Shown here one piece after another: positions 32,115 through 43,667 of a stretch of 48,886 nt of DNA. Positions within the stretch are counted from its first letter, which is position 1, and the number at the start of each line of letters is the position of its first letter. This DNA comes from a virus. Taxonomy: Duplodnaviria; Caudoviricetes. A model generated the notes under the pieces. The model had not been told where the DNA came from, searched no databases, and worked only from the letters and a program-made list of their open reading frames with translations. The stretch is taken from the IMG/VR virus record IMGVR_UViG_3300032261_000011, positions 1 to 48,886 of that record; one strand, 5' to 3'. Made by a program: the position numbers and the translations under genes.

Positions 32115-32197
32115 TTCCTTGACGGAGGGAACTGCAGAATCCCCTCTCCGCTACCGTCAAGGGAACGTCCTGGGCAAGACGTTAAACTGCCCTGGAG
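32115..32197 (+). other. Two intergenic stem-loops upstream of the UDG-exonuclease gene
   Basis: TTCCTTGACGG...CCGTCAAGGGAA and TGGGCA-AGACGTTAAAC-TGCCTG, the second abutting the GGAGG SD. Confidence 0.55.
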
Positions 32198-32202
32198 GGT
32201 CT

Positions 32203-33219
32203 ATGAATAAGATAATGCTTCTTGGTGAAGCATGGGGAGAGCATGAAGAACGGGAGAGAACAGCTTTCGTTGGCCCAACCGGCCACTTGCTTAACGAGAT
32301 GCTCCTTGAAGTAGGCATCCACCCGTCTGAATGCTACAAGACCAATGTGTTTAATCGTCGACCGCCCCGAAACCTTATCTCCGCGTTCTGTGGGGATAAG
32401 GCTTCTGGGATTGATGGCTACCCTGCGCTTCAATCTGGAAAGTATGTCCGAAACGAATTCGAGCCAGAATTTGTCCGACTCACTAAGGAACTCAATGCGG
32501 TTGCTCCAAACGTTATCGTTGCGTTTGGGAACACTGCGACATGGGCTTTGCTTGGCAAACCGAACATAGGGGCAATGCGTGGCTTCACCTATCATTCAAC
32601 GCACCTTGTCGTTGGCCTTAAGGTTCTGCCCACTTATCATCCCGCCGCCATCCTTCGGTTGTGGGAATACCGCCCTACCGTTCTAGCCGATCTGCATAAG
32701 GCTAAACGGGAATCCAAGTATCCAGATATCAAGCGTCCAAAGCGGGAAGTCTGGATTGAGCCAACCCTTGAAGATCTGGAGACTTTCTATGAGCGATATA
32801 TCGTCGGATGCTCACTCCTTTCTGTGGATATTGAGACAGCTGGAAGCCAAGTTACCTGCATTGGGTTCGCGCCGGGAGCCAGCGTTTCCCTCGTTATTCC
32901 ATTCTATGACTCACGAGCAAAAACTCGAAGCTATTGGCCTAATGAGCACTCTGAATCACAGGCTTGGCATTTTGTGCAACGAGTTCTTGCTACTGATGTC
33001 CCAAAGCTCTTCCAGAACGGACTCTACGACATAACCTTCCTGCTTAGATCTATGGGCATCAAGGTTCGCAATGCAAAGGAGGACACCATGCTTTTACACC
33101 ATGCTCTTCAGCCAGAATCGCTGAAGGGCTTGGGCTATCTTGGCTCGATCTATACCAACGAGCATAATTGGAAAATTATGCGGGATAGGGTTACCAAAAC
33201 TATCAAACGTGACGACTAG
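32203..33219 (+). CDS. Family-4 uracil-DNA glycosylase domain fused to the N-terminal part of a PolA 3'-5' exonuclease domain
   Basis: UDG: LLGEAWG..E....FVGPTG, TNVF..RPP, AFGNTA, TYHPAAILR. Exo I: SVDIET. Exo II: QNGLYD, then DTMLLHHAL. No Exo III motif. Confidence 0.9.
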   Translation: MNKIMLLGEAWGEHEERERTAFVGPTGHLLNEMLLEVGIHPSECYKTNVFNRRPPRNLISAFCGDKASGIDGYPALQSGKYVRNEFEPEFVRLTKELNAVAPNVIVAFGNTATWALLGKPNIGAMRGFTYHSTHLVVGLKVLPTYHPAAILRLWEYRPTVLADLHKAKRESKYPDIKRPKREVWIEPTLEDLETFYERYIVGCSLLSVDIETAGSQVTCIGFAPGASVSLVIPFYDSRAKTRSYWPNEHSESQAWHFVQRVLATDVPKLFQNGLYDITFLLRSMGIKVRNAKEDTMLLHHALQPESLKGLGYLGSIYTNEHNWKIMRDRVTKTIKRDD

Positions 33220-33232
33220 AAAGGCGAAAACC

Positions 33233-33517
33233 ATGCTTATGCAAAATCGGAAGACAGATCTGTTCCTCGCATTGATGGCCCATGTTAGTAATCCAGACGG
33301 CTTGACCGATTACGAACTGGCCGAAATATGCAAGCGTCAACTCAATAGCATCAATCGGCGACGAAGCGAACTTCGGGACTTAGGCTTTGTCCAAGAAACC
33401 AATCGGAAGGGAACCTCTCCCAATGGATCTCCACTCACCATTTGGAAAGTCACCAAACGCGGAGTGAAAGAGTTCCTCAAGCTTGATACACCCAATGGTG
33501 TCACGAGGCGTCGATGA
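33233..33517 (+). CDS. Winged-helix DNA-binding protein (94 aa)
   Basis: GLTDYELAE...SINRRRSELRDLGFV...SPNG...IW. Confidence 0.75.
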   Translation: MLMQNRKTDLFLALMAHVSNPDGLTDYELAEICKRQLNSINRRRSELRDLGFVQETNRKGTSPNGSPLTIWKVTKRGVKEFLKLDTPNGVTRRR

Positions 33518-34026
33518 ATCAAGTAATCAGAACTCTTGAAGTAATAACAACCGAAGCAAAAGTAGTCTACAATCGTCTTGATTGGAGGGATTACTACAAA
33601 TTTGGAGAACTTTTATTGGAAGCGCGACCCTTAGTTCCAAAAGGACAGTGGCTCAAGTATCTTGGAAAGAACTTTCCAGACTTTAGTCGACCTCAAGCCT
33701 ATCGCTATATGGAGCTAGCAAAAGACGAAACAAAAACCATGTCCCAGATAAACCATCCAAAACCCAAAGTATCGTTTCTCGCTGCGAGAAATATACTTAA
33801 TCCCAAAAAGGAGGCGCAGACTTTTAAAAGAGAAATCAATGTTCTTAAAAGAGAAAATGAGTCTCTATTTGAGAATCAAGCTAAATTTATTTTGAGTCGA
33901 ATATCTGCTCAAGCATATTTACACCCAAGCAAAGTTAACGAAAAGAAACGTTACTCATCTTGGTTACTAGCATTGGCTAATGCTTGGCTCAGGAAACACG
34001 ATAAATTCGTGGAAGCAGCAGAATGA
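33514..34026 (+). CDS. DUF3102-like protein
   Basis: GELLLEARPLVPKGQWLKYL..NF..SRPQAYRYMELA. Confidence 0.65.
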   Translation: MNQVIRTLEVITTEAKVVYNRLDWRDYYKFGELLLEARPLVPKGQWLKYLGKNFPDFSRPQAYRYMELAKDETKTMSQINHPKPKVSFLAARNILNPKKEAQTFKREINVLKRENESLFENQAKFILSRISAQAYLHPSKVNEKKRYSSWLLALANAWLRKHDKFVEAAE

Positions 34027-35507
34027 GGATTGTTGACACATCAAGGTTCAAGTCGAATGAACTCCGGCCCTCTGAGAGAGAGTGGGTTTATAACGGGCTT
34101 GACTGCATGGTCACGGCTGAAGTGTTCCAAGTGCTCGAACGACAGTTGGATTCTATCACGTCACAGGTGTACTCGTTTTCAAAAGCTCTACAAGGCCCGG
34201 TGCTCGACATGCGGCTTCGAGGCATTCTGGTCGATAAGGTTCGTCGTAGCGAAGTCATCGAAGCCTATGAAGACAAAATCGACACCCTTGAAAGCGCCCT
34301 CTACCGAATAACCACCGAAGCCTATGGCGTGTATAGCTTCAACTGGCGTTCGTTCCAAGATCTAAGGAGTCTATTCTATGGAACCCTCAAAATCCCTCCC
34401 ATCAGAAACATGGGAGTCATCACCACGGATCGAGATGCTTTGGAGCGACTTGAATCCTACCGAGTTGCAGCGCCTGCTATCGTTCTTATCAAAGCACTTC
34501 GAGATTTGGGAAAGAGAATCTCCTTCCTTAAAACTGAGGTTGACTCTGATGGTCGAATGAGAACAAGCTATAACATCGCAGGGACGGAGACAGGTCGTTT
34601 TTCATCAAGCCTTAGTGAATTTGGGACTGGTACCAACCTCCAAAACGTTGAAGACCTTTTGCGGTCCATCTTCATTGCAGACGAAGGAATGAAGTTGGCT
34701 TACTTTGATGCCAAACAAGGAGAATCCCGCTGTGTCGGAGCAATCGAGTGGAACCAATTTCGAGATGGGCAATACCTTGAAGCTTGTGAAGGAGGGGACT
34801 TGCACACCTCAGTGGCTAAGATCTGTTGGCCTGAACTTCCTTGGACAGGAGATCTTGCGGTTGACACAAAACTGGCAGAGCAACCGTATTATCGTCACCA
34901 TTCGCGAAGGTACATGGCAAAACGACTCGGTCACGGTACTAATTATGGGGGAAAAGTTCGTACCATGTCCGAACAAACCAAAATCCCAATCGACGCCGTT
35001 GAAGACTTCCAAGCCGCTTACGAGAAAGCGTTCCCGACACATCAAAAGTGGCGAGAAGCGGTAGATCGTCAACTCAAGACTTACGGTTATCTTGTCTCTC
35101 TAACCGGCCGGAGAAGGCATTTCTTTGGTCGGCGTGACGCTGGCGAAACGTTGCGCGAAGCGATTGCCTTTGATCCCCAAGGCAGTCTTGCGGACATTGT
35201 TAATAAGGGGATGCTCCAAGTGTGGAAACAGAATAACTGCCAACTGCTACTCCAGAATCATGACGCAATAGTCATACAATTCGAACAGGAGCGAGAAGAT
35301 GAAATCATCCCGTTGGTTATCAAGCAACTTGAAGTCCCCATTCAACTCAAATACGGACGGACCTTCACTATCCCTTACGGTGCCAAGACGGGTTGGAATT
35401 GGGGCGAGCTAACCAAAGATAACCCGGATGGCCTCAAGGAGTTCAACCCCGGCGATAAACGGGCCAGGACACCGCCGGTGCCGCTCTTGGATCGAATCTT
35501 TCGTTGA
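34023..35507 (+). CDS. polA: Family A DNA polymerase (Exo III motif plus polymerase domain)
   Basis: YNGLDC (Exo III), TETGRFSS, NLQN, motif A FDAKQGESR, GDLH, motif B RYMAKRLGHGTNYG, PQG, motif C NHDA. Confidence 0.95.
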   Translation: MRIVDTSRFKSNELRPSEREWVYNGLDCMVTAEVFQVLERQLDSITSQVYSFSKALQGPVLDMRLRGILVDKVRRSEVIEAYEDKIDTLESALYRITTEAYGVYSFNWRSFQDLRSLFYGTLKIPPIRNMGVITTDRDALERLESYRVAAPAIVLIKALRDLGKRISFLKTEVDSDGRMRTSYNIAGTETGRFSSSLSEFGTGTNLQNVEDLLRSIFIADEGMKLAYFDAKQGESRCVGAIEWNQFRDGQYLEACEGGDLHTSVAKICWPELPWTGDLAVDTKLAEQPYYRHHSRRYMAKRLGHGTNYGGKVRTMSEQTKIPIDAVEDFQAAYEKAFPTHQKWREAVDRQLKTYGYLVSLTGRRRHFFGRRDAGETLREAIAFDPQGSLADIVNKGMLQVWKQNNCQLLLQNHDAIVIQFEQEREDEIIPLVIKQLEVPIQLKYGRTFTIPYGAKTGWNWGELTKDNPDGLKEFNPGDKRARTPPVPLLDRIFR

Positions 35508-36664: not shown

Positions 36665-37630
36665 TTAGGCGTTCGGGTAGATTACCTCAACCTCGTCATC
36701 AGTGTTGAGTCCCAGGGCCTCCATAAGTCCAGGACTCAGGTCCGCCACTCTCCCAGTATTCTCGTTTGGTCCCCAATCGGCAGGCCAAGCTAGAAACTCC
36801 TTACCATTAGCCCGAACGATTGCTTGGTAAGACGGATCAAGCAATGCTGTCTTTGGCGTTATCTCATAGTCCCATCTGCAAGCGACGTAGAAGATTCCCG
36901 GATTCAATCTTCTAGCCAATCCAGTTGTTCCTTCTGGTTGCGTAGGAAGAAACAAGTGTGGTGCGTCATCATATTCATAGATAAACGCTAATCCTTCATC
37001 TAACGTCACGCCAGTATCTTCAGGACCACCAAAGTGGCTGCATCTACCTGAGGTGTGGAACATCCATTCTTCTGGCGGTTGGATTGTCGGTGTTGTCTCT
37101 TTGGCTTCTTCACCTGATAGAGCCTCCGAGATGGCTCGACAGATTGCATCAAAGTGCTCTCCGTAAAGAGTAGCGTCGGCCGAAGAATCAACGAAGCAAA
37201 CTTCAATCAAGATTGCTGTCTCTTCCGTATGGTTCAGGAAGAACAAGCCAGTTGTATGCTTTGGCCCTCGATCAGTGAAATGACCCGCTGCTGCAAGAGG
37301 TGGGGATACCTTCTTGGCCCACGCTTTTCCCGAATCCGAAGCGTACCAAGTCTCGGTTCCTCTTGGCTCATGAGTTGTCTCAAAGGCATTGAAGTGGACA
37401 CTAACGTCAAGATCTCTTGCTTGATTGTTATGGAAGTCAACGATCCTATTGAGGTTCTCGTCCACGTCGTTGCTAACGTCATCATGGAAGACATCGACGC
37501 TAACGCCAGCATCTCCAAGATAGTCTGCAACGTGCTCAACGACTCGCCTTGCTTCATCGACTTCATTGAGATAACCTGAAGCGCCTTGAACGTACTTGCC
37601 GTGTCCACTTGATATGACTATTCTCATCAT
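36665..37630 (-). CDS. Endolysin: N-acetylmuramoyl-L-alanine amidase (Amidase_3) plus C-terminal DPBB-like domain
   Basis: ISSGHG..E, VSVHFNA, ILIEVCFVDS; C-terminal CSHFGG..ACRW..ADWGP..RVADLS. Confidence 0.88.
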   Translation of the reverse strand: MMRIVISSGHGKYVQGASGYLNEVDEARRVVEHVADYLGDAGVSVDVFHDDVSNDVDENLNRIVDFHNNQARDLDVSVHFNAFETTHEPRGTETWYASDSGKAWAKKVSPPLAAAGHFTDRGPKHTTGLFFLNHTEETAILIEVCFVDSSADATLYGEHFDAICRAISEALSGEEAKETTPTIQPPEEWMFHTSGRCSHFGGPEDTGVTLDEGLAFIYEYDDAPHLFLPTQPEGTTGLARRLNPGIFYVACRWDYEITPKTALLDPSYQAIVRANGKEFLAWPADWGPNENTGRVADLSPGLMEALGLNTDDEVEVIYPNA

Positions 37631-37938
37631 CGCCTCTCCTGCTCTCGCTTCGCAATTTGTTCAGCAGCCATTTCGTAGCCTTTTCGCGTATTCTGTAGGC
37701 CCCTACGGAAGTTTGACGCATCATTGATTCCGTGAGTCAACCAAACTCCAAATAGCTTAACTATCTGATCATGATAGGCGTCATCAAGTGCCCGTTTATC
37801 CAGTTCAAGCAGCTTGGCATTGAATGGAACGCCTGCATAAAGTTGTGGTTCTCCTTCACCTTGCGTTTCGATCCGTGTGTATAAACCCGCAAGTATCAAT
37901 AGAAGAATGACTATTAAAATAACGATTATTGGCCTCAA
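37627..37938 (-). CDS. Single-pass membrane protein upstream of the endolysin (lysis accessory candidate)
   Basis: GGAGG SD before TTG 37938; IIVILIVILLLILAGLY transmembrane segment followed by a helical soluble domain. Confidence 0.6.
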   Translation of the reverse strand: MRPIIVILIVILLLILAGLYTRIETQGEGEPQLYAGVPFNAKLLELDKRALDDAYHDQIVKLFGVWLTHGINDASNFRRGLQNTRKGYEMAAEQIAKREQERR

Positions 37939-40900
37939 CGGTGCCTCCGTCGCAGAGGCTTTGGCTTTCCGGTTCCCTCCTTCAATCCATGCAACCAATC
38001 TCCAACACCTGATGGATGCTCCATGTTATGATAGTACCGATACAGATATTGCGCTGCCTTGGCTTCCGTTTGATTCGTTAGTCCCGTTAGTACGCCGAAT
38101 GTGATAATGAAGTTCTTTAACGCCTTTGCTGACCGTTCTCCAGTCCAAGGTTTCCCTTGTGCCCAATCAACAATGTCCTTTACAGATTCAAGGACGAGCT
38201 TCTCGCTCGTATCGAATATGCTCTGTTGCCCTTCTCTCCCCCAAAAGAAATCACGCATAAACGATCGAACGGCAATCCATGAACTTGTCATGCTGAATGC
38301 GGTTGCAGCTAGTCCACGAGCAGCTTTTTCTCCCCAAGACTTTGATTCATCATCCCACAATGGGGTAACCAACTCTTCAACGGCAGCGACACCAGCAATA
38401 TACGAAAGAAACATAAATGGAAGCGGTTTCACCAACTGCTTCGCATCCTGAACATCGCCCTTCTTCCATTCGTAACGAGCGTCCTTTGCTCTCCATGCCA
38501 TCTCGTATTGCTTCTGTCCAATGTGACTAAAGAAATTATACAATGAACCGTATGACTTGATGATTGGATTCCGACTGGATGCTACCTTTGGCCAGTTCGT
38601 TACAGCCGAAGATCCATGCGCTTGCCTAACGCTGGTATCTGCAATGTACTTTGCATCCTCAACGGTTTCCCCTGCGCGAAGGGCTTTTCGGTATGCAGCA
38701 TTCCAAGTCGGAACCGCCGTTGCCAAATCGAAGAATCCAACCATCTGACCGCCCAAAGCCAACATTGCCTGCCGCGGTGACGACCGCAGCAAGTGCATTG
38801 GAGCTTGACCTTGACTGTATTCGGTCCAAGTCTTGGTTCGTCGATCCAGTTCTCCACTATTGTCCATTGCAAAGCGCCAGTTCGTCTTCCCAACCTCGTC
38901 GCTCTTTCCCCATATGTGGGCTACTTCTCGAAGGAAATTTAAGGGACCAACCTGTTGCAATGAATTGATCCCGGCTGTCAAAGAATGCTTCGCTACGACA
39001 TTCAGGTTGAATCCAATCAATGTTCCAATCGTGTTCTGGCGAATGCCCTCTATCACCCTTCCGAACAGTCCTAGGTTAACTTGATTGTTAGCGTTGGCAA
39101 CGTCCCGTACCCATTCTTTCATCCAATTGACTTCCTCCCTACCGAGATGCTTTAACATGGCTTTCTGAAGATCTTCTCTCCATAGGATCTTTTGGGCTTG
39201 AAGAATGGCTGGCCTGAAGTTGATGTCATGGATCATCTCCTTCATTCGTTGTGGAATGATATCAAGGTCCAGTTCTTGATCCCCAACGAAAGTAGTCCGT
39301 TCTTTGGTCCATCCCCGATTCGTCGTAATCGGTTTGAATCCCGGTTGGTTGACTGTATTCGCCAGTATCTTCTCTTCGGTTATTGGTTCTCTATCTGGCC
39401 CGAACTTCTGGTAGTCTATGGGGTGATGCCAACCGCGGTAAGTACCATAAGGCGTTGTAAGCGGCTCAATAGGGTTCTTCTTGATTGGAACGCCCCCTGT
39501 CTCATAGGACATTCTATCGCCCTTACGAAACAGTTCTTCCAATAGATCGCCAATCTTTTGCTGCCGATCTAAGTCCTCCTTCGTTATTCCCCGTTTTGGA
39601 TCGAATAACCATGCTGCCAGCGATTGTTCTGTCATCCCTGGTTGGGACTTTATGAACTTATCCCTTGCTACTGGATCACCATAGATTGACAGAATCCCTA
39701 AAACCTGCCGCTTACGCAAGGGAAGGTTCTCATCACTAAAGATTCCCTCCTTAATGAGTCCATTCTTGATCTTCTTGTTTGCTCCAGGAATCTTGCCAAC
39801 CGCCGCTCTTAACTTCGCCTGATACTCACGAAGCATCAAATGTTCGTTGTCAGCGGCTTGAGCCATTGGCCTGACGACAAATTGATTGAAGTCACCCCTA
39901 ATGTTGCCCCGATCCAACCGATTCATTATGCTTTCGGCCGTCAAGTGGGCAACCCTAACCTGATTCCAAAGCGCAACCGCCCTTTCTGATGTAGCAGCTA
40001 CGCCTTTGGGAAGGAACTTAGATGGAAAATGTTTCGGTTGCATCGGCGGAAGAACGTCCTCAATCTTCTCCACCATCCGCTCAATGGTTTCATCAAGGTC
40101 GACCACTTGTTGGCCTTTGAAGATCTTCCCATCCATTCGGGCATTCCATTCCAAGGACTTCAGCGAATCATGAATATCCCTAAAATCCTCAACGGTCATT
40201 TCATCAATGTTTCGCATCTCCTTGGAGTCAAGGAGCCAATCGGGAATTTGGATGTTCCTTCGGTTAGCCAGCTTATGGTCGATAAAATCGTTCAGTGTCT
40301 TAAACTTGGTTAGCTCCATATTCTTCTGAAGGTTCACTGGATCAATGTCGATCTTACCTTCAAGCCGCATAACGATTTCTTGCATGAACGGAACGTACTC
40401 TTGGGATACTCCAGGCACGGCAGTCTTGCTGAACCGCTTCATTATCCTTTCGACATTATTACGCATCTTCTCCAACTTCATCGTTTCTTTAGCTTGGAGA
40501 GCCGCAATTTGCCGTCGTTGTGCCCATTCATACGCGCTGTCCCATTTCTGTTTGAGCATCTCCTTTTCAATCTCTCGCCCCGCTTTCCCACTCTCGCGCA
40601 AGGATTTTTCGGTTGAGATATCCTTCATCAGCTTGTCATTGAGGGCAGCATCGGCCATCCGCTGAAAGTCTTCCTTCATGAATGGTTGAGCAACGCCAGC
40701 CTTCTGACCAAAGAGATACGTTTCTTCAGCCAACCTATCCAATTCGCTAGGATGGAGAATGTCCTGTCTTAATCCATCGAGAATGTCTTTGGCCGGAACC
40801 CCGAACTCATTAGCCATTCGAGAGGCAACCTGCTCATCAACCAGACTTTGAATGTAGTTTCTGAACGGAATCCTCCCCTGCCGTTGAGAAACCGCGATTA

Positions 40901-43667
40901 GGTTCTGAACGAACTCGTCGCCCGTTTCGAACCCAAACATCCCCGCCATCTCGTCTGGGTCCATTCCTCCTTTCTTCATGAAGGTATCAGGAAGGCCACC
41001 TTGTTGATCCTTACTGAGAGCATCGCGGTTCAACTTTGGTGGCGCTCCAATCTTCTTACCCAAGTAGACACCATTACGCATGAAGTCCATTGCAGCGATT
41101 TCAGGTCGCTGCATCAGTAAGTCACGTTCTTCAGCCTCAACAACCGGGAGGTTATCCCTCCACTCTTTGCTCATCCGCCGCATCTCCAGCTTATGAGCCC
41201 GCTCTAGTATCTTCTGGCTCTTCCTGAGTTCCCCGGCCTTGACCAGCTTCTCCCAACGAGCCAGCATGTCCTTTGTTACACCGACGGCCTTGGCCTCTTG
41301 CACCCCCAGTTTTGGTGGTGCCTTCCGTTCTGGTACTGCCTTTGGAGCTTCTATTCCCCTTGGACCAAACATGTTCTTTTGGTCTTCAGTTATTCGATCA
41401 AAGGCCATCAATGCTACTTCAAGTGCGTTCGTATCTTCTTCTGGTAATCCCAGGACTCTACGAATGAACTCAACAGCGGCCTGCCACATAGTTTTGCCGC
41501 GCCATTCCTTCATATTAAGACGTTCGGCAATCCTTGCATTCAATGGTGTATCTATCAATGCCTGCTGAAAATCTCTATCAAAGATCCCCGCTATAAATTC
41601 GTGTTCATCTTCCATAAAGTAAGCGAACTTCTTTATCAATTCTGGATTCGCTTCAGCAACCAGATCCCTTACTCCCTTTGCCAAGGCACCGCTACTAGGA
41701 TTCCTGTAAATAGCCCTGGTTGTTATTGCATGGATGGACTCGTGGAGCATAATCCAACGCAAGCCTCTTGGATCTCCACCCATGTAATCATATTCGGAGA
41801 TAACTACATGATTACGAATTGAGTCATAATAAGCTCCTTGTTCAAGTCTTAAACTAGTTTTGTACCATTCTTCGTTACTGACAATGTGAACTGGAACTTC
41901 CCCAGATATCTCCTTGATCCTTTTTGCCAGCGCCTTATATAGATTGGATATAGAATCCTGCACCTTATTGATTTGAATCTCATTGAGGGCTCTCTCCAAT
42001 GTAGTCGAACCTAAAGGTCTAGTTCTTTCAAGCATCCCTTCCTTTGTTATACCAGGAAGTGCAATATCTTCCGTTGCAGGTTCAACTCCAAAAATTCCTT
42101 TTGGTCCCTTCTCAAAGTATTCTCTTGGGGTCAATAGAATACCTGGAATTGGCTTTAGACCTGCCGCCCGTTGAACGGTATCGTATGGATCTTCTGCTTC
42201 TGGAGGCTTCGGCGTTGGTGGTTCTTTTCCTATCCTTCGAGCATACTCATCGCGTTCTGCTTTGGCTTCTTGCCAATCTTGATAAGCCTGATCCTTTTCA
42301 GCCTCTCTAGCCGGATCAAAGACAGTCTTGTCAAATTCCTTCCGACGAAATTCAGCAAGATCATCCAAATTCTCTAAATGCTTATCCTGAAGCTCAGCGG
42401 TTTCTTTCTTGCTCTCAACTTCGGCCTTAGTTAACCCGGACGACCGAACCCTGCGGTCATCTGCAAGGGCCTTTCTAATCTCTTTGTCAACCCATGTGAC
42501 CCAATCATGGACCGGTATCTCAACATCTCCGCCAGTTGATGCGGCCGAGCGGATCTTCTGAAGAATATCCGGTACCCGTCCAAGTAAATTGTCCTCAGGG
42601 GAAGGTTCCTTGTCGCCATAAATTCTACGAATTGCGTCGTAGGGTATCCCAATCTTTGCATCCTTGGCGATGATCCTCGGGAGATTCTGAAATATCTCCG
42701 GCGAGATTTCGCGCGTCTCAGAACGGTCAGCGGCCGATTCGATATCGTCAAAGTGTTGGGCATCTAGTTGTGCCTCTCTCGCCTTCCCCTCATCAATCAA
42801 TGGATCAACACCAACCGGAACGTTCTCTTCAGCTTTAACGAATGGCTCAACCTTGTCCGCTACTTGTCCAACTTTAGCGGGGTCAGCCTTTGCAAGATCT
42901 CTCGCGCCCTTGACTCCTGCCAGTGCCAACAGCACCATCGCGTAGCCTTCAACCGTATCAATAGGAACACCAAGGTACTCAGCAAGAGGCCTCGTGACGG
43001 CTGTTCTACCTGCTCCTAGAATTGGTGAAATCGCGATTTGCGCTGGTGCAAACAACGCTTGAACCATCTCGCCTCGACCAAGTTGCTTCCTTAATAGGTC
43101 AGCTTGCCGCTCGATAACTTTCGGATCTATTCCCTGCTCCTGCCATTTCTTTATGGTCGTTTGAACAATTTCTTCTGTCTCTGGAGTAATCCCTGGCTTT
43201 GCAGCTTCAACAAGTTGACGGAATCCCGACTTAGCAATGTCCCAAGTATCCGAAAAGACCTGTTTCGGATCGGATAACATTCTCCCGCCTGGAGTGCTCT
43301 TTAGCACCTCTAGTCCAGGACCATAAGCTTTCTTCATAAAGTCGGAGAAGTCAGAAAGATTATGCCAATCGTTCTGGCTAACGCTGGCAGCGAGGGGATG
43401 CGATTCAAGGTACGATTGAAGGTTCGGATCGAAATGGATGATATTATGGGTTAGATTCTGCTTATGCGCCTTGGCAACTTCATCGAGATTCCTAGCAGCA
43501 TCTATCGGATCAATGCCGGTATCCTCAGCAATTCCCGCCGCTTTGGCTGCTTTGTCAGCCTCAAAGTCTGGAGCCCGTTGAATACGCCATTGGTTCTGTT
43601 GCTCATAATCTCTATTGATGCTTTCAGCGATTTCTTGGTCGCTTCTTGGGTCAAGAGCCGTTGGCAT
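37935..43667 (-). CDS. Large internal virion (ejection) protein with HExxH domain (1910 aa)
   Basis: Size and position as the last core gene; helical; GAYYD...VVIS...MLHESIHA...HEFIA. Confidence 0.8.
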   Translation of the reverse strand: MPTALDPRSDQEIAESINRDYEQQNQWRIQRAPDFEADKAAKAAGIAEDTGIDPIDAARNLDEVAKAHKQNLTHNIIHFDPNLQSYLESHPLAASVSQNDWHNLSDFSDFMKKAYGPGLEVLKSTPGGRMLSDPKQVFSDTWDIAKSGFRQLVEAAKPGITPETEEIVQTTIKKWQEQGIDPKVIERQADLLRKQLGRGEMVQALFAPAQIAISPILGAGRTAVTRPLAEYLGVPIDTVEGYAMVLLALAGVKGARDLAKADPAKVGQVADKVEPFVKAEENVPVGVDPLIDEGKAREAQLDAQHFDDIESAADRSETREISPEIFQNLPRIIAKDAKIGIPYDAIRRIYGDKEPSPEDNLLGRVPDILQKIRSAASTGGDVEIPVHDWVTWVDKEIRKALADDRRVRSSGLTKAEVESKKETAELQDKHLENLDDLAEFRRKEFDKTVFDPAREAEKDQAYQDWQEAKAERDEYARRIGKEPPTPKPPEAEDPYDTVQRAAGLKPIPGILLTPREYFEKGPKGIFGVEPATEDIALPGITKEGMLERTRPLGSTTLERALNEIQINKVQDSISNLYKALAKRIKEISGEVPVHIVSNEEWYKTSLRLEQGAYYDSIRNHVVISEYDYMGGDPRGLRWIMLHESIHAITTRAIYRNPSSGALAKGVRDLVAEANPELIKKFAYFMEDEHEFIAGIFDRDFQQALIDTPLNARIAERLNMKEWRGKTMWQAAVEFIRRVLGLPEEDTNALEVALMAFDRITEDQKNMFGPRGIEAPKAVPERKAPPKLGVQEAKAVGVTKDMLARWEKLVKAGELRKSQKILERAHKLEMRRMSKEWRDNLPVVEAEERDLLMQRPEIAAMDFMRNGVYLGKKIGAPPKLNRDALSKDQQGGLPDTFMKKGGMDPDEMAGMFGFETGDEFVQNLIAVSQRQGRIPFRNYIQSLVDEQVASRMANEFGVPAKDILDGLRQDILHPSELDRLAEETYLFGQKAGVAQPFMKEDFQRMADAALNDKLMKDISTEKSLRESGKAGREIEKEMLKQKWDSAYEWAQRRQIAALQAKETMKLEKMRNNVERIMKRFSKTAVPGVSQEYVPFMQEIVMRLEGKIDIDPVNLQKNMELTKFKTLNDFIDHKLANRRNIQIPDWLLDSKEMRNIDEMTVEDFRDIHDSLKSLEWNARMDGKIFKGQQVVDLDETIERMVEKIEDVLPPMQPKHFPSKFLPKGVAATSERAVALWNQVRVAHLTAESIMNRLDRGNIRGDFNQFVVRPMAQAADNEHLMLREYQAKLRAAVGKIPGANKKIKNGLIKEGIFSDENLPLRKRQVLGILSIYGDPVARDKFIKSQPGMTEQSLAAWLFDPKRGITKEDLDRQQKIGDLLEELFRKGDRMSYETGGVPIKKNPIEPLTTPYGTYRGWHHPIDYQKFGPDREPITEEKILANTVNQPGFKPITTNRGWTKERTTFVGDQELDLDIIPQRMKEMIHDINFRPAILQAQKILWREDLQKAMLKHLGREEVNWMKEWVRDVANANNQVNLGLFGRVIEGIRQNTIGTLIGFNLNVVAKHSLTAGINSLQQVGPLNFLREVAHIWGKSDEVGKTNWRFAMDNSGELDRRTKTWTEYSQGQAPMHLLRSSPRQAMLALGGQMVGFFDLATAVPTWNAAYRKALRAGETVEDAKYIADTSVRQAHGSSAVTNWPKVASSRNPIIKSYGSLYNFFSHIGQKQYEMAWRAKDARYEWKKGDVQDAKQLVKPLPFMFLSYIAGVAAVEELVTPLWDDESKSWGEKAARGLAATAFSMTSSWIAVRSFMRDFFWGREGQQSIFDTSEKLVLESVKDIVDWAQGKPWTGERSAKALKNFIITFGVLTGLTNQTEAKAAQYLYRYYHNMEHPSGVGDWLHGLKEGTGKPKPLRRRHR

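Follow-up and report, generated by a model that had tools for sequence, protein, structure and literature searches.

Family A DNA polymerases (PolA) encoded by two genes are already known from several phages. In the S-SBP1-like group (cyanophage clade B, T7-like) the exonuclease and polymerase products are predicted to reassemble (Czernecki et al., 2023, PMC10201439, available text), split PolAs of cyanophage clade B also appear in the accessible part of PMC12695635, and LUZ24 and phiEco32 likewise divide a family A polymerase between an exo and a pol gene. MEP401 is split at another site, inside the polymerase domain, according to the available text of PMC10580990, and a fusion between PolA and uracil-DNA glycosylase (UDG) has been described for SPO1 (PMC3201878, as far as accessible). 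In another enzyme, Aeh1 nrdA, splitting by mobE produced two pieces that share a composite active site and carry new, essential tails (Crona et al., PMC3045599; PMC2988022; PMC2677866; available parts). Here we analyzed a stretch of DNA of 48,886 nt, IMG/VR record IMGVR_UViG_3300032261_000011 (the window; all coordinates refer to it as a whole), in which PolA is divided between a small-subunit gene with UDG and the exonuclease motifs Exo I and Exo II, and a large-subunit gene with Exo III and the polymerase domain. We consider it highly likely that this pair is a real and conserved two-subunit UDG-PolA with a composite proofreading site.

The DEDD-Y motif set (DxE, D, YxxxD) is complete only when both open reading frames (ORFs) are combined (Table 1). 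Pfam searches placed UDG at residues 3-155 (E 1.2e-18) and DNA_pol_A_exo1 at residues 203-314 (E 1.5e-5) of the small subunit, and DNA_pol_A (PF00476, E 6.7e-35) in the large subunit, whose residues D229, K300/Y308 and H413-D414 align with Klentaq; the domain and the motifs A, B and C by which a family A polymerase is recognized are all present. The two halves are separated by 803 nt and therefore lie in different frames. The coordinates, the three Exo motifs, the UDG fusion and the two intervening genes are all as described in the original prediction, which had been made from the DNA alone and had proposed looking for the split point in relatives.

The same cut was found in 156 distinct junctions of one main clade. 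Relatives were gathered with queries derived from the window and with queries from fused and distant relatives, and the ratio of split to fused entries mirrors these queries, not nature. Classification of 309 entries gave 208 that are split, 73 in which a single ORF contains both Exo II and Exo III, and another 28 that are incomplete or too distant; the distant, fused loci L062-L064 fell outside the profile filter of this classification and were used as outgroup. The Exo III pattern was passed by 200 of the 208 split entries, corresponding to 158 distinct junctions after removal of copies, including the 156 of the main clade. The eight split loci missed by the pattern read YC[GA][LM]D, and Y and D are kept there too. 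In one search, every locus more than 40% identical to the window and containing both halves was split; 64 longer homologues are all at most 39% identical, none of them falling within the split clade in the subset placed on the tree.

D209, E211 and D276 are each present in 136/136 full split N-halves, and the Exo III Y and D are present in 156/156 main-clade large subunits, a count partly fixed by the selection pattern. The protein ends at the cut are conserved as well. Small subunits stop 11-16 residues past an invariant WK, with the tail consensus TIK[RK][DE][DEA] (146/156 by a loose pattern), large subunits begin with M[KR]I[IV]xT in 148/156, and their start overlaps the upstream stop in 129/156. 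Gap length ranges from -4 to 1221 nt over the 158 junctions, with frames distributed 46/46/66, and the passengers, which are interchangeable, amount to 170 ORFs in 125 clusters. The DUF3102 gene also occurs in the gap of a different phage (L176, 4910-5422); other recurrent gap genes are DUF7768 (four loci) and DUF1937 (three loci). Among the split phages is a cultured one, the plaque-forming Caulobacter podophage Kuura (38-40% identity), which has the same cut with two different passengers; its small subunit is annotated as hypothetical, and the available text of the Kuura paper (PMC9959647) does not mention the cut. Matching stretches were estimated at about 1000 and about 2200 in two collections, numbers that may include fused relatives, and a plasmid search returned distant PolAs only, with at most 27% identity among the matches listed. 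Twelve close matches in genome bins were considered as a host clue and rejected; their taxon labels are unrelated, and they are probably mis-binned phage contigs.

The complex of the two proteins was modelled with 40-row alignments and two Mg, together with three controls. It scored 0.93, and the best control scored 0.31. The score mark applied is reached by 116 of 157 solved complexes and by 2 of 215 mismatched pairs, and it is roughly valid here, where our own alignments were used and Mg was added. The modelled interface crosses the core of the exonuclease fold with 230-255 residue contacts, at least 93% agreement between runs and a partner pLDDT (predicted local distance difference test) of at least 90. 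It includes residues 1-8 and 15-39 of the large subunit, whose Exo III helix is placed next to Exo I, and C28 contacts D209. When the subunits were modelled alone, the last 48 residues of the small subunit (291-338) were poor (block pLDDT 69, 54, 63, 60 and 34), and residues 25-29 of the large subunit had a pLDDT below 50. Split-gene halves often pass such a test through their resemblance to solved single chains; as modelled, the sequences do not prevent the usual fold, but binding itself is not thereby demonstrated.

In the mechanism that we propose, the products of the two polymerase genes, which are divided after Exo II and before Exo III, would lock together, the Exo III helix of the large subunit likely completing the proofreading site of the small subunit. 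D209, E211 and D276 from the small subunit and Y23 and D27 from the large subunit would form one two-metal DEDD-Y site, and the new head strand MRIVDT may help to clasp the halves. A single operon with translational coupling would yield both proteins, and the UDG domain would likely scan the template for uracil, as in single-chain UDG-PolAs. A two-subunit PolA with a proofreading site formed in trans had been put forward in the original prediction, along with complex modelling as a check; the conserved split, the retained DEDD-Y residues and a complex model that clears its controls argue for it. Its idea of a detachable module found no support, since the interface spans the exonuclease core and the lone subunit ends are poorly modelled; judged by the models, an obligate heterodimer fits better.

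Several points weigh against this two-subunit reading. The pass of the complex model may only mirror likeness to solved single-chain polymerases (Klenow; phiLo 9QHS). The conserved tail TIKRDD (327-338) has no confident place in the modelled interface, which thus does not account for its conservation, and the G8/E9 count, like that of Exo III, is partly fixed by selection patterns. The small protein might instead be a loosely bound, exchangeable UDG/exonuclease factor, or the pair might assemble with a merely structural proofreading site. Separate genes permit separate expression, 24 of 156 large-subunit starts neither overlap nor abut a stop, and in LUZ24 and phiEco32 the exo and pol subunit genes are several genes apart. 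We regard both variants as unlikely: the cut crosses the exonuclease core, where the many modelled contacts and the poorly modelled lone ends speak against a loose association, and the metal ligands are all invariant, which is unexpected for a dead site.

It is very improbable that a single protein chain is restored by RNA splicing, by ribosome bypassing or frameshifting, or by protein trans-splicing. Phage replication genes with introns, split inteins and bypassing are known (PMC2677866 and PMC2988022, available parts), and frameshifting would be conceivable at 29 of the 158 junctions, where the overlap is 4 or 1 nt. However, the spread of gap lengths over all three frames and the unrelated passengers strongly disfavor splicing, recoding and decay, and 39 of 158 gaps are at most 6 nt long, which argues against an intron. 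The stop and start positions are conserved, each with its own terminal motif. About 18 residues are added over the junction (13 + 22 versus the 17-residue linker), too few for a split intein. The split-intein fractured genes of Dassa et al. 2009 reportedly carry N- and C-intein halves at their facing ends. Rfam gave 0 matches at gathering score in the entire window and the Pfam search found no intein domain in either polymerase ORF, in line with the lack of intron and intein hallmarks noted originally. That the gene is broken and decaying, or that the assembly is wrong, can practically be dismissed even though the window is metagenomic: an independent contig (contig 15 of run X19, a run that is not flagged as a possible source) spans 32928-34300 with 0 differences, which rules out an assembly error, no other DNA polymerase was found among the 50 window ORFs scanned, 156 relatives have the cut with intact catalytic residues, and Kuura forms plaques.

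The features of the locus are collected in Table 1. The small-subunit ATG at 32203 is preceded by GGAGG; a longer TTG start at 32119, given by the ORF finder, was rejected because relatives are without it. Two ATGA overlaps (33514 and 34023) chain passenger 1, passenger 2 and the polymerase gene, and a scan of promoters and terminators gave chance level (4 versus 3.2 and 6 versus 4.7). The Pfam search returned no match for passenger 1, for which a MarR/ArsR-like winged-helix fold is predicted (template-modelling score 0.71-0.80, predicted model against predicted model); this agrees with the winged-helix assignment made earlier, and the DUF3102-like assignment of passenger 2 was also recovered.

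Table 1. Positions of the split polymerase genes, their motifs and the genes between them
Feature	Position	Strand	Remarks
Small subunit ORF	32203..33219	+	338 aa; UDG and Exo I/II; ATG start, TAG stop
UDG motif A variant GEAWG (E9)	32224..32238	+	
UDG H146 in YHPA	32635-32646	+	with E15, F22 and N48 completes the uracil-pocket set
Exo I DIET (D209, E211)	32827..32838	+	small subunit
Exo II QNGLYD (D276)	33013..33030	+	small subunit
C-terminal tail TIKRDD and stop	33199..33219	+	conserved; no confident place in the modelled interface
Passenger gene 1	33233..33517	+	94 aa; predicted winged helix-turn-helix; PHROG 1123
Passenger gene 2	33514..34026	+	170 aa; DUF3102-like (E 5.6e-6); stop overlaps large-subunit start (ATGA)
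Large subunit ORF	34023..35507	+	494 aa; MRIVDT head, Exo III helix, thumb, palm, fingers
N-terminal head MRIVDT	34023..34040	+	consensus M[KR]I[IV]xT; residues 1-8, in the modelled interface
Exo III YNGLD (Y23, D27)	34089..34103	+	large subunit, residues 23-27
Polymerase motif A	34701-34724	+	large subunit
Polymerase motif B	34905..34949	+	His304 at the position of Taq F667 / E. coli F762
Polymerase motif C	35253-35264	+	large subunit

The window pair was compared with the described systems. S-SBP1 gp15, LUZ24 gp25 and phiEco32 gp74 end after Exo III (YCIQD, YCLQD and YCEQD) and comprise the whole exonuclease domain, whereas the window has Exo III on the polymerase subunit and UDG on the small one and belongs to a lineage other than the T7-like one; the nearest relatives are the Kuura and Mel-JY34 types. 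Since the defining cut position differs, the pair lies outside the S-SBP1-like class. In CCPol-MP, from mobile elements, the polymerase likewise retains only the last exonuclease helices, on which a second protein is predicted to pack, but MP, a beta-barrel, is unrelated and restores no proofreading site (available text of PMC10201439), whereas here the partner is the missing exonuclease half. Single-chain UDG-PolAs (SPO1; the SP15-like phiLo and YerA41; N4-like cluster 17) have a family-4-like UDG preceding exo and pol, the GE and HP of which are kept here (PMC13697223, available part). The SP15-like enzymes are single chains of more than 1000 aa with large inserts, in T-modified genomes, compared with 338 + 494 aa in the window, and no thymine-modification gene was recognized among the 50 window ORFs scanned. 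The fused sister lineage (Microcystis phage Mel-JY34, PP438425; Manatee Spring, MW202489) has the domain order, the motif B His and a DUF3987-like gene downstream in common with the window, at 30-39% identity, but carries Exo II and Exo III on one chain via the 17-residue linker, except in five phages. Three loci of the fused lineage (L066, L067 and L068) have an annotated DNA methyltransferase just upstream of the polymerase, where the window has none. A fold search of BFVD returned generic PolAs only. In the main texts of mostly open literature, no description of a PolA divided between the motifs Exo II and Exo III was found; the supplements of PMC10201439 and PMC9959647 could bear on the point. 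The available parts of PMC7824862, PMC4889955 and PMC5418858 contain nothing on such a cut. Split PolAs are already known; what sets this one apart from those compared is the position of its cut, after Exo II and before Exo III, and with it a predicted composite proofreading site.

By analogy, the window pair may work like the fractured Aeh1 enzyme. It resembles nrdA-a/nrdA-b in having two independently translated pieces with active-site residues on both, no intron or intein, and new tails; a free-standing HNH gene at the break is also shared, here in the relatives L273 and L295. It differs in the enzyme concerned, in a cut that is fixed across a large clade and mostly lacks the nuclease, in the recurrence of the break within one loop, and in tails that are not simply oppositely charged.

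A polymerase-domain tree was calculated from 45 rows (LG+G4), leaving out L300 with its long branch; for the outgroup-rooted tree 12 further rows were thinned. The main split clade (support 100/95) has a mostly fused lineage as its sister, and the split loci L273 and L295 fall inside this sister lineage. One single split clade was rejected (approximately unbiased test, p 1.07e-5), and with fused outgroups the ancestral state is fused. Fused relatives have 17 residues from WK to Exo III, with the linker WKDEGK[ED]W. The polymerase part of L273 is 97% identical to the unsplit L272, and at L273:3477-3951 about 473 nt take the place of about 43 nt of L272, bringing new tails and an HNH gene that overlaps both halves; on this comparison L273 looks like a very recent fission. 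The L295 junction also holds an HNH gene, 45% identical to that of L273. A further 119 loci yielded 18 split rows; seven are in the sister lineage and represent five phages cut in the same loop, and in two of these (L273 and L295) the gap contains a gene for a free-standing HNH nuclease.

A second junction type, QWKP[DE]xxxWKxG[GD]-stop / HETxE[DE]xW, is present in L295 (=L387), L360 (2454-2550), L363 and L407/L408. It is scattered among unsplit relatives and contains HNH once (L295) and none in the others, and L360, L363 and L407/L408 do not cluster with L295 in quick trees of either half. This pattern suggests that the second junction type moves between genomes by homing, or that re-fusion has been repeated. 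Some sister-lineage polymerases also show a second break site, their first ORF stopping within the polymerase domain after about 560-595 aa (L068:3962-7096, from Vibrio phage vB_VspS_VS-ABTNL-3; L256-L259; L261-L265; L298-L299); in vB_VspS_VS-ABTNL-3 a 184-aa gene lies between the polymerase pieces.

For the origin of the cut, we propose that the surface loop separating Exo II from Exo III was invaded by an HNH homing nuclease of the free-standing kind. Its later loss or replacement would have left a slot now taking passenger genes. We lean slightly towards such an Aeh1-nrdA-type insertion, followed by loss or replacement of the nuclease, for the split of the main clade. Among 81 passenger ORFs of at least 70 aa, 12 match HNH_3 and three match endonuclease VII, and an HNH_3 or endonuclease VII gene is found in 15 of the 117 main-clade gaps of at least 30 nt. 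As a measure of descent from the main-clade tail, the L273 tail scored -2.2, at the bottom of the leave-one-out range (minimum -2.4, 5th percentile 16.1); nearly all random 13-mers score lower, but some fused linkers score as high as -1.1. Some observations count against this origin: the gap of the window has no nuclease gene, similarity between main-clade passengers and the HNHs of L273 and L295 is weak (best E about 1e-4), and nucleases enter ordinary intergenic spots, so that their presence in main-clade gaps does not prove authorship. More tentatively, and with some doubt on our part, the Exo II-Exo III loop could be a repeated break point and the split a mobile allele: the HNH nuclease would cut unsplit genes, copy in the stop-start junction and make working two-subunit enzymes, after which the nuclease would be lost and the junction would become a cargo slot.

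The UDG domain matches family 4 UDGs best (E 6.8e-24; aligned to 1L9G, 1UI0 and 4ZBX), and the top fold match of the small subunit is the phiLo UDG-PolA 9QHS. The uracil pocket of family 4 UDGs has two Glu, a Phe, an Asn and a His-Pro, and all of these are present in the small subunit. In split members E15 is present in 132/136 (D in four), F22 in 135/136, N48 in 136/136 and H146 in 136/136, and these four residues are kept more strictly than in fused relatives (H146 29/43). The proline of motif A, GE(A/G)PG, in contrast, occurs in 0/136 split members (W, Y, R, Q or K instead) and in 39/43 fused relatives; its loss weighs against the proposed role and makes glycosylase activity less sure. Family 4 UDGs bind a 4Fe-4S cluster with N-terminal cysteines. 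This N-terminal iron-sulfur segment is absent from the small subunit, the UDG of which starts at the motif A strand, about 33 residues that precede it in 1UI0 being missing. The polymerases of phiLo and YerA41 excise uracil from the template (Missoury et al., 2026, PMC13697223, available text), and, judged by its residues, the small-subunit UDG is likely to excise uracil as well.

The motif B His was found in 112/112 matching split members (44/156 were truncated or unmatched) and in 49/49 matching fused relatives (10/59 unmatched). PolA usually has F, Y or L at this position, and a literature search on His at PolA position 762 returned nothing relevant.

The window is a tailed-phage sequence with terminase, portal-like adaptor, major head, internal virion and tail genes, and its sequence is present in soil metagenomes. 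The replication module around the polymerase genes contains a helicase, a PD-(D/E)XK nuclease, a Sak4-like ATPase and a DUF3987 protein. Elsewhere, a 1910-aa probable internal virion protein (37935-43667, minus strand; PHROG 9880) contains the HExxH stretch LHESIHA, perhaps a metallopeptidase domain, and an endolysin (36665-37630, minus strand) combines Amidase_3 (residues 4-171) with a C-terminal domain of about 130 aa.

If the two-subunit reading is true, the proofreading active site of a family A polymerase would be divided between two gene products, and this composite polymerase would be fixed in a very large, mostly unrecognized lineage of soil and freshwater phages. Annotation overlooks the system, as the small subunit of Kuura illustrates. 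The natural split site could serve to switch proofreading and uracil scanning in a polymerase. Given a cultured member and the near-identical split/unsplit pair L273/L272, it would become testable how a selfish nuclease cuts an essential enzyme in its active site and how such a cut spreads and is fixed.

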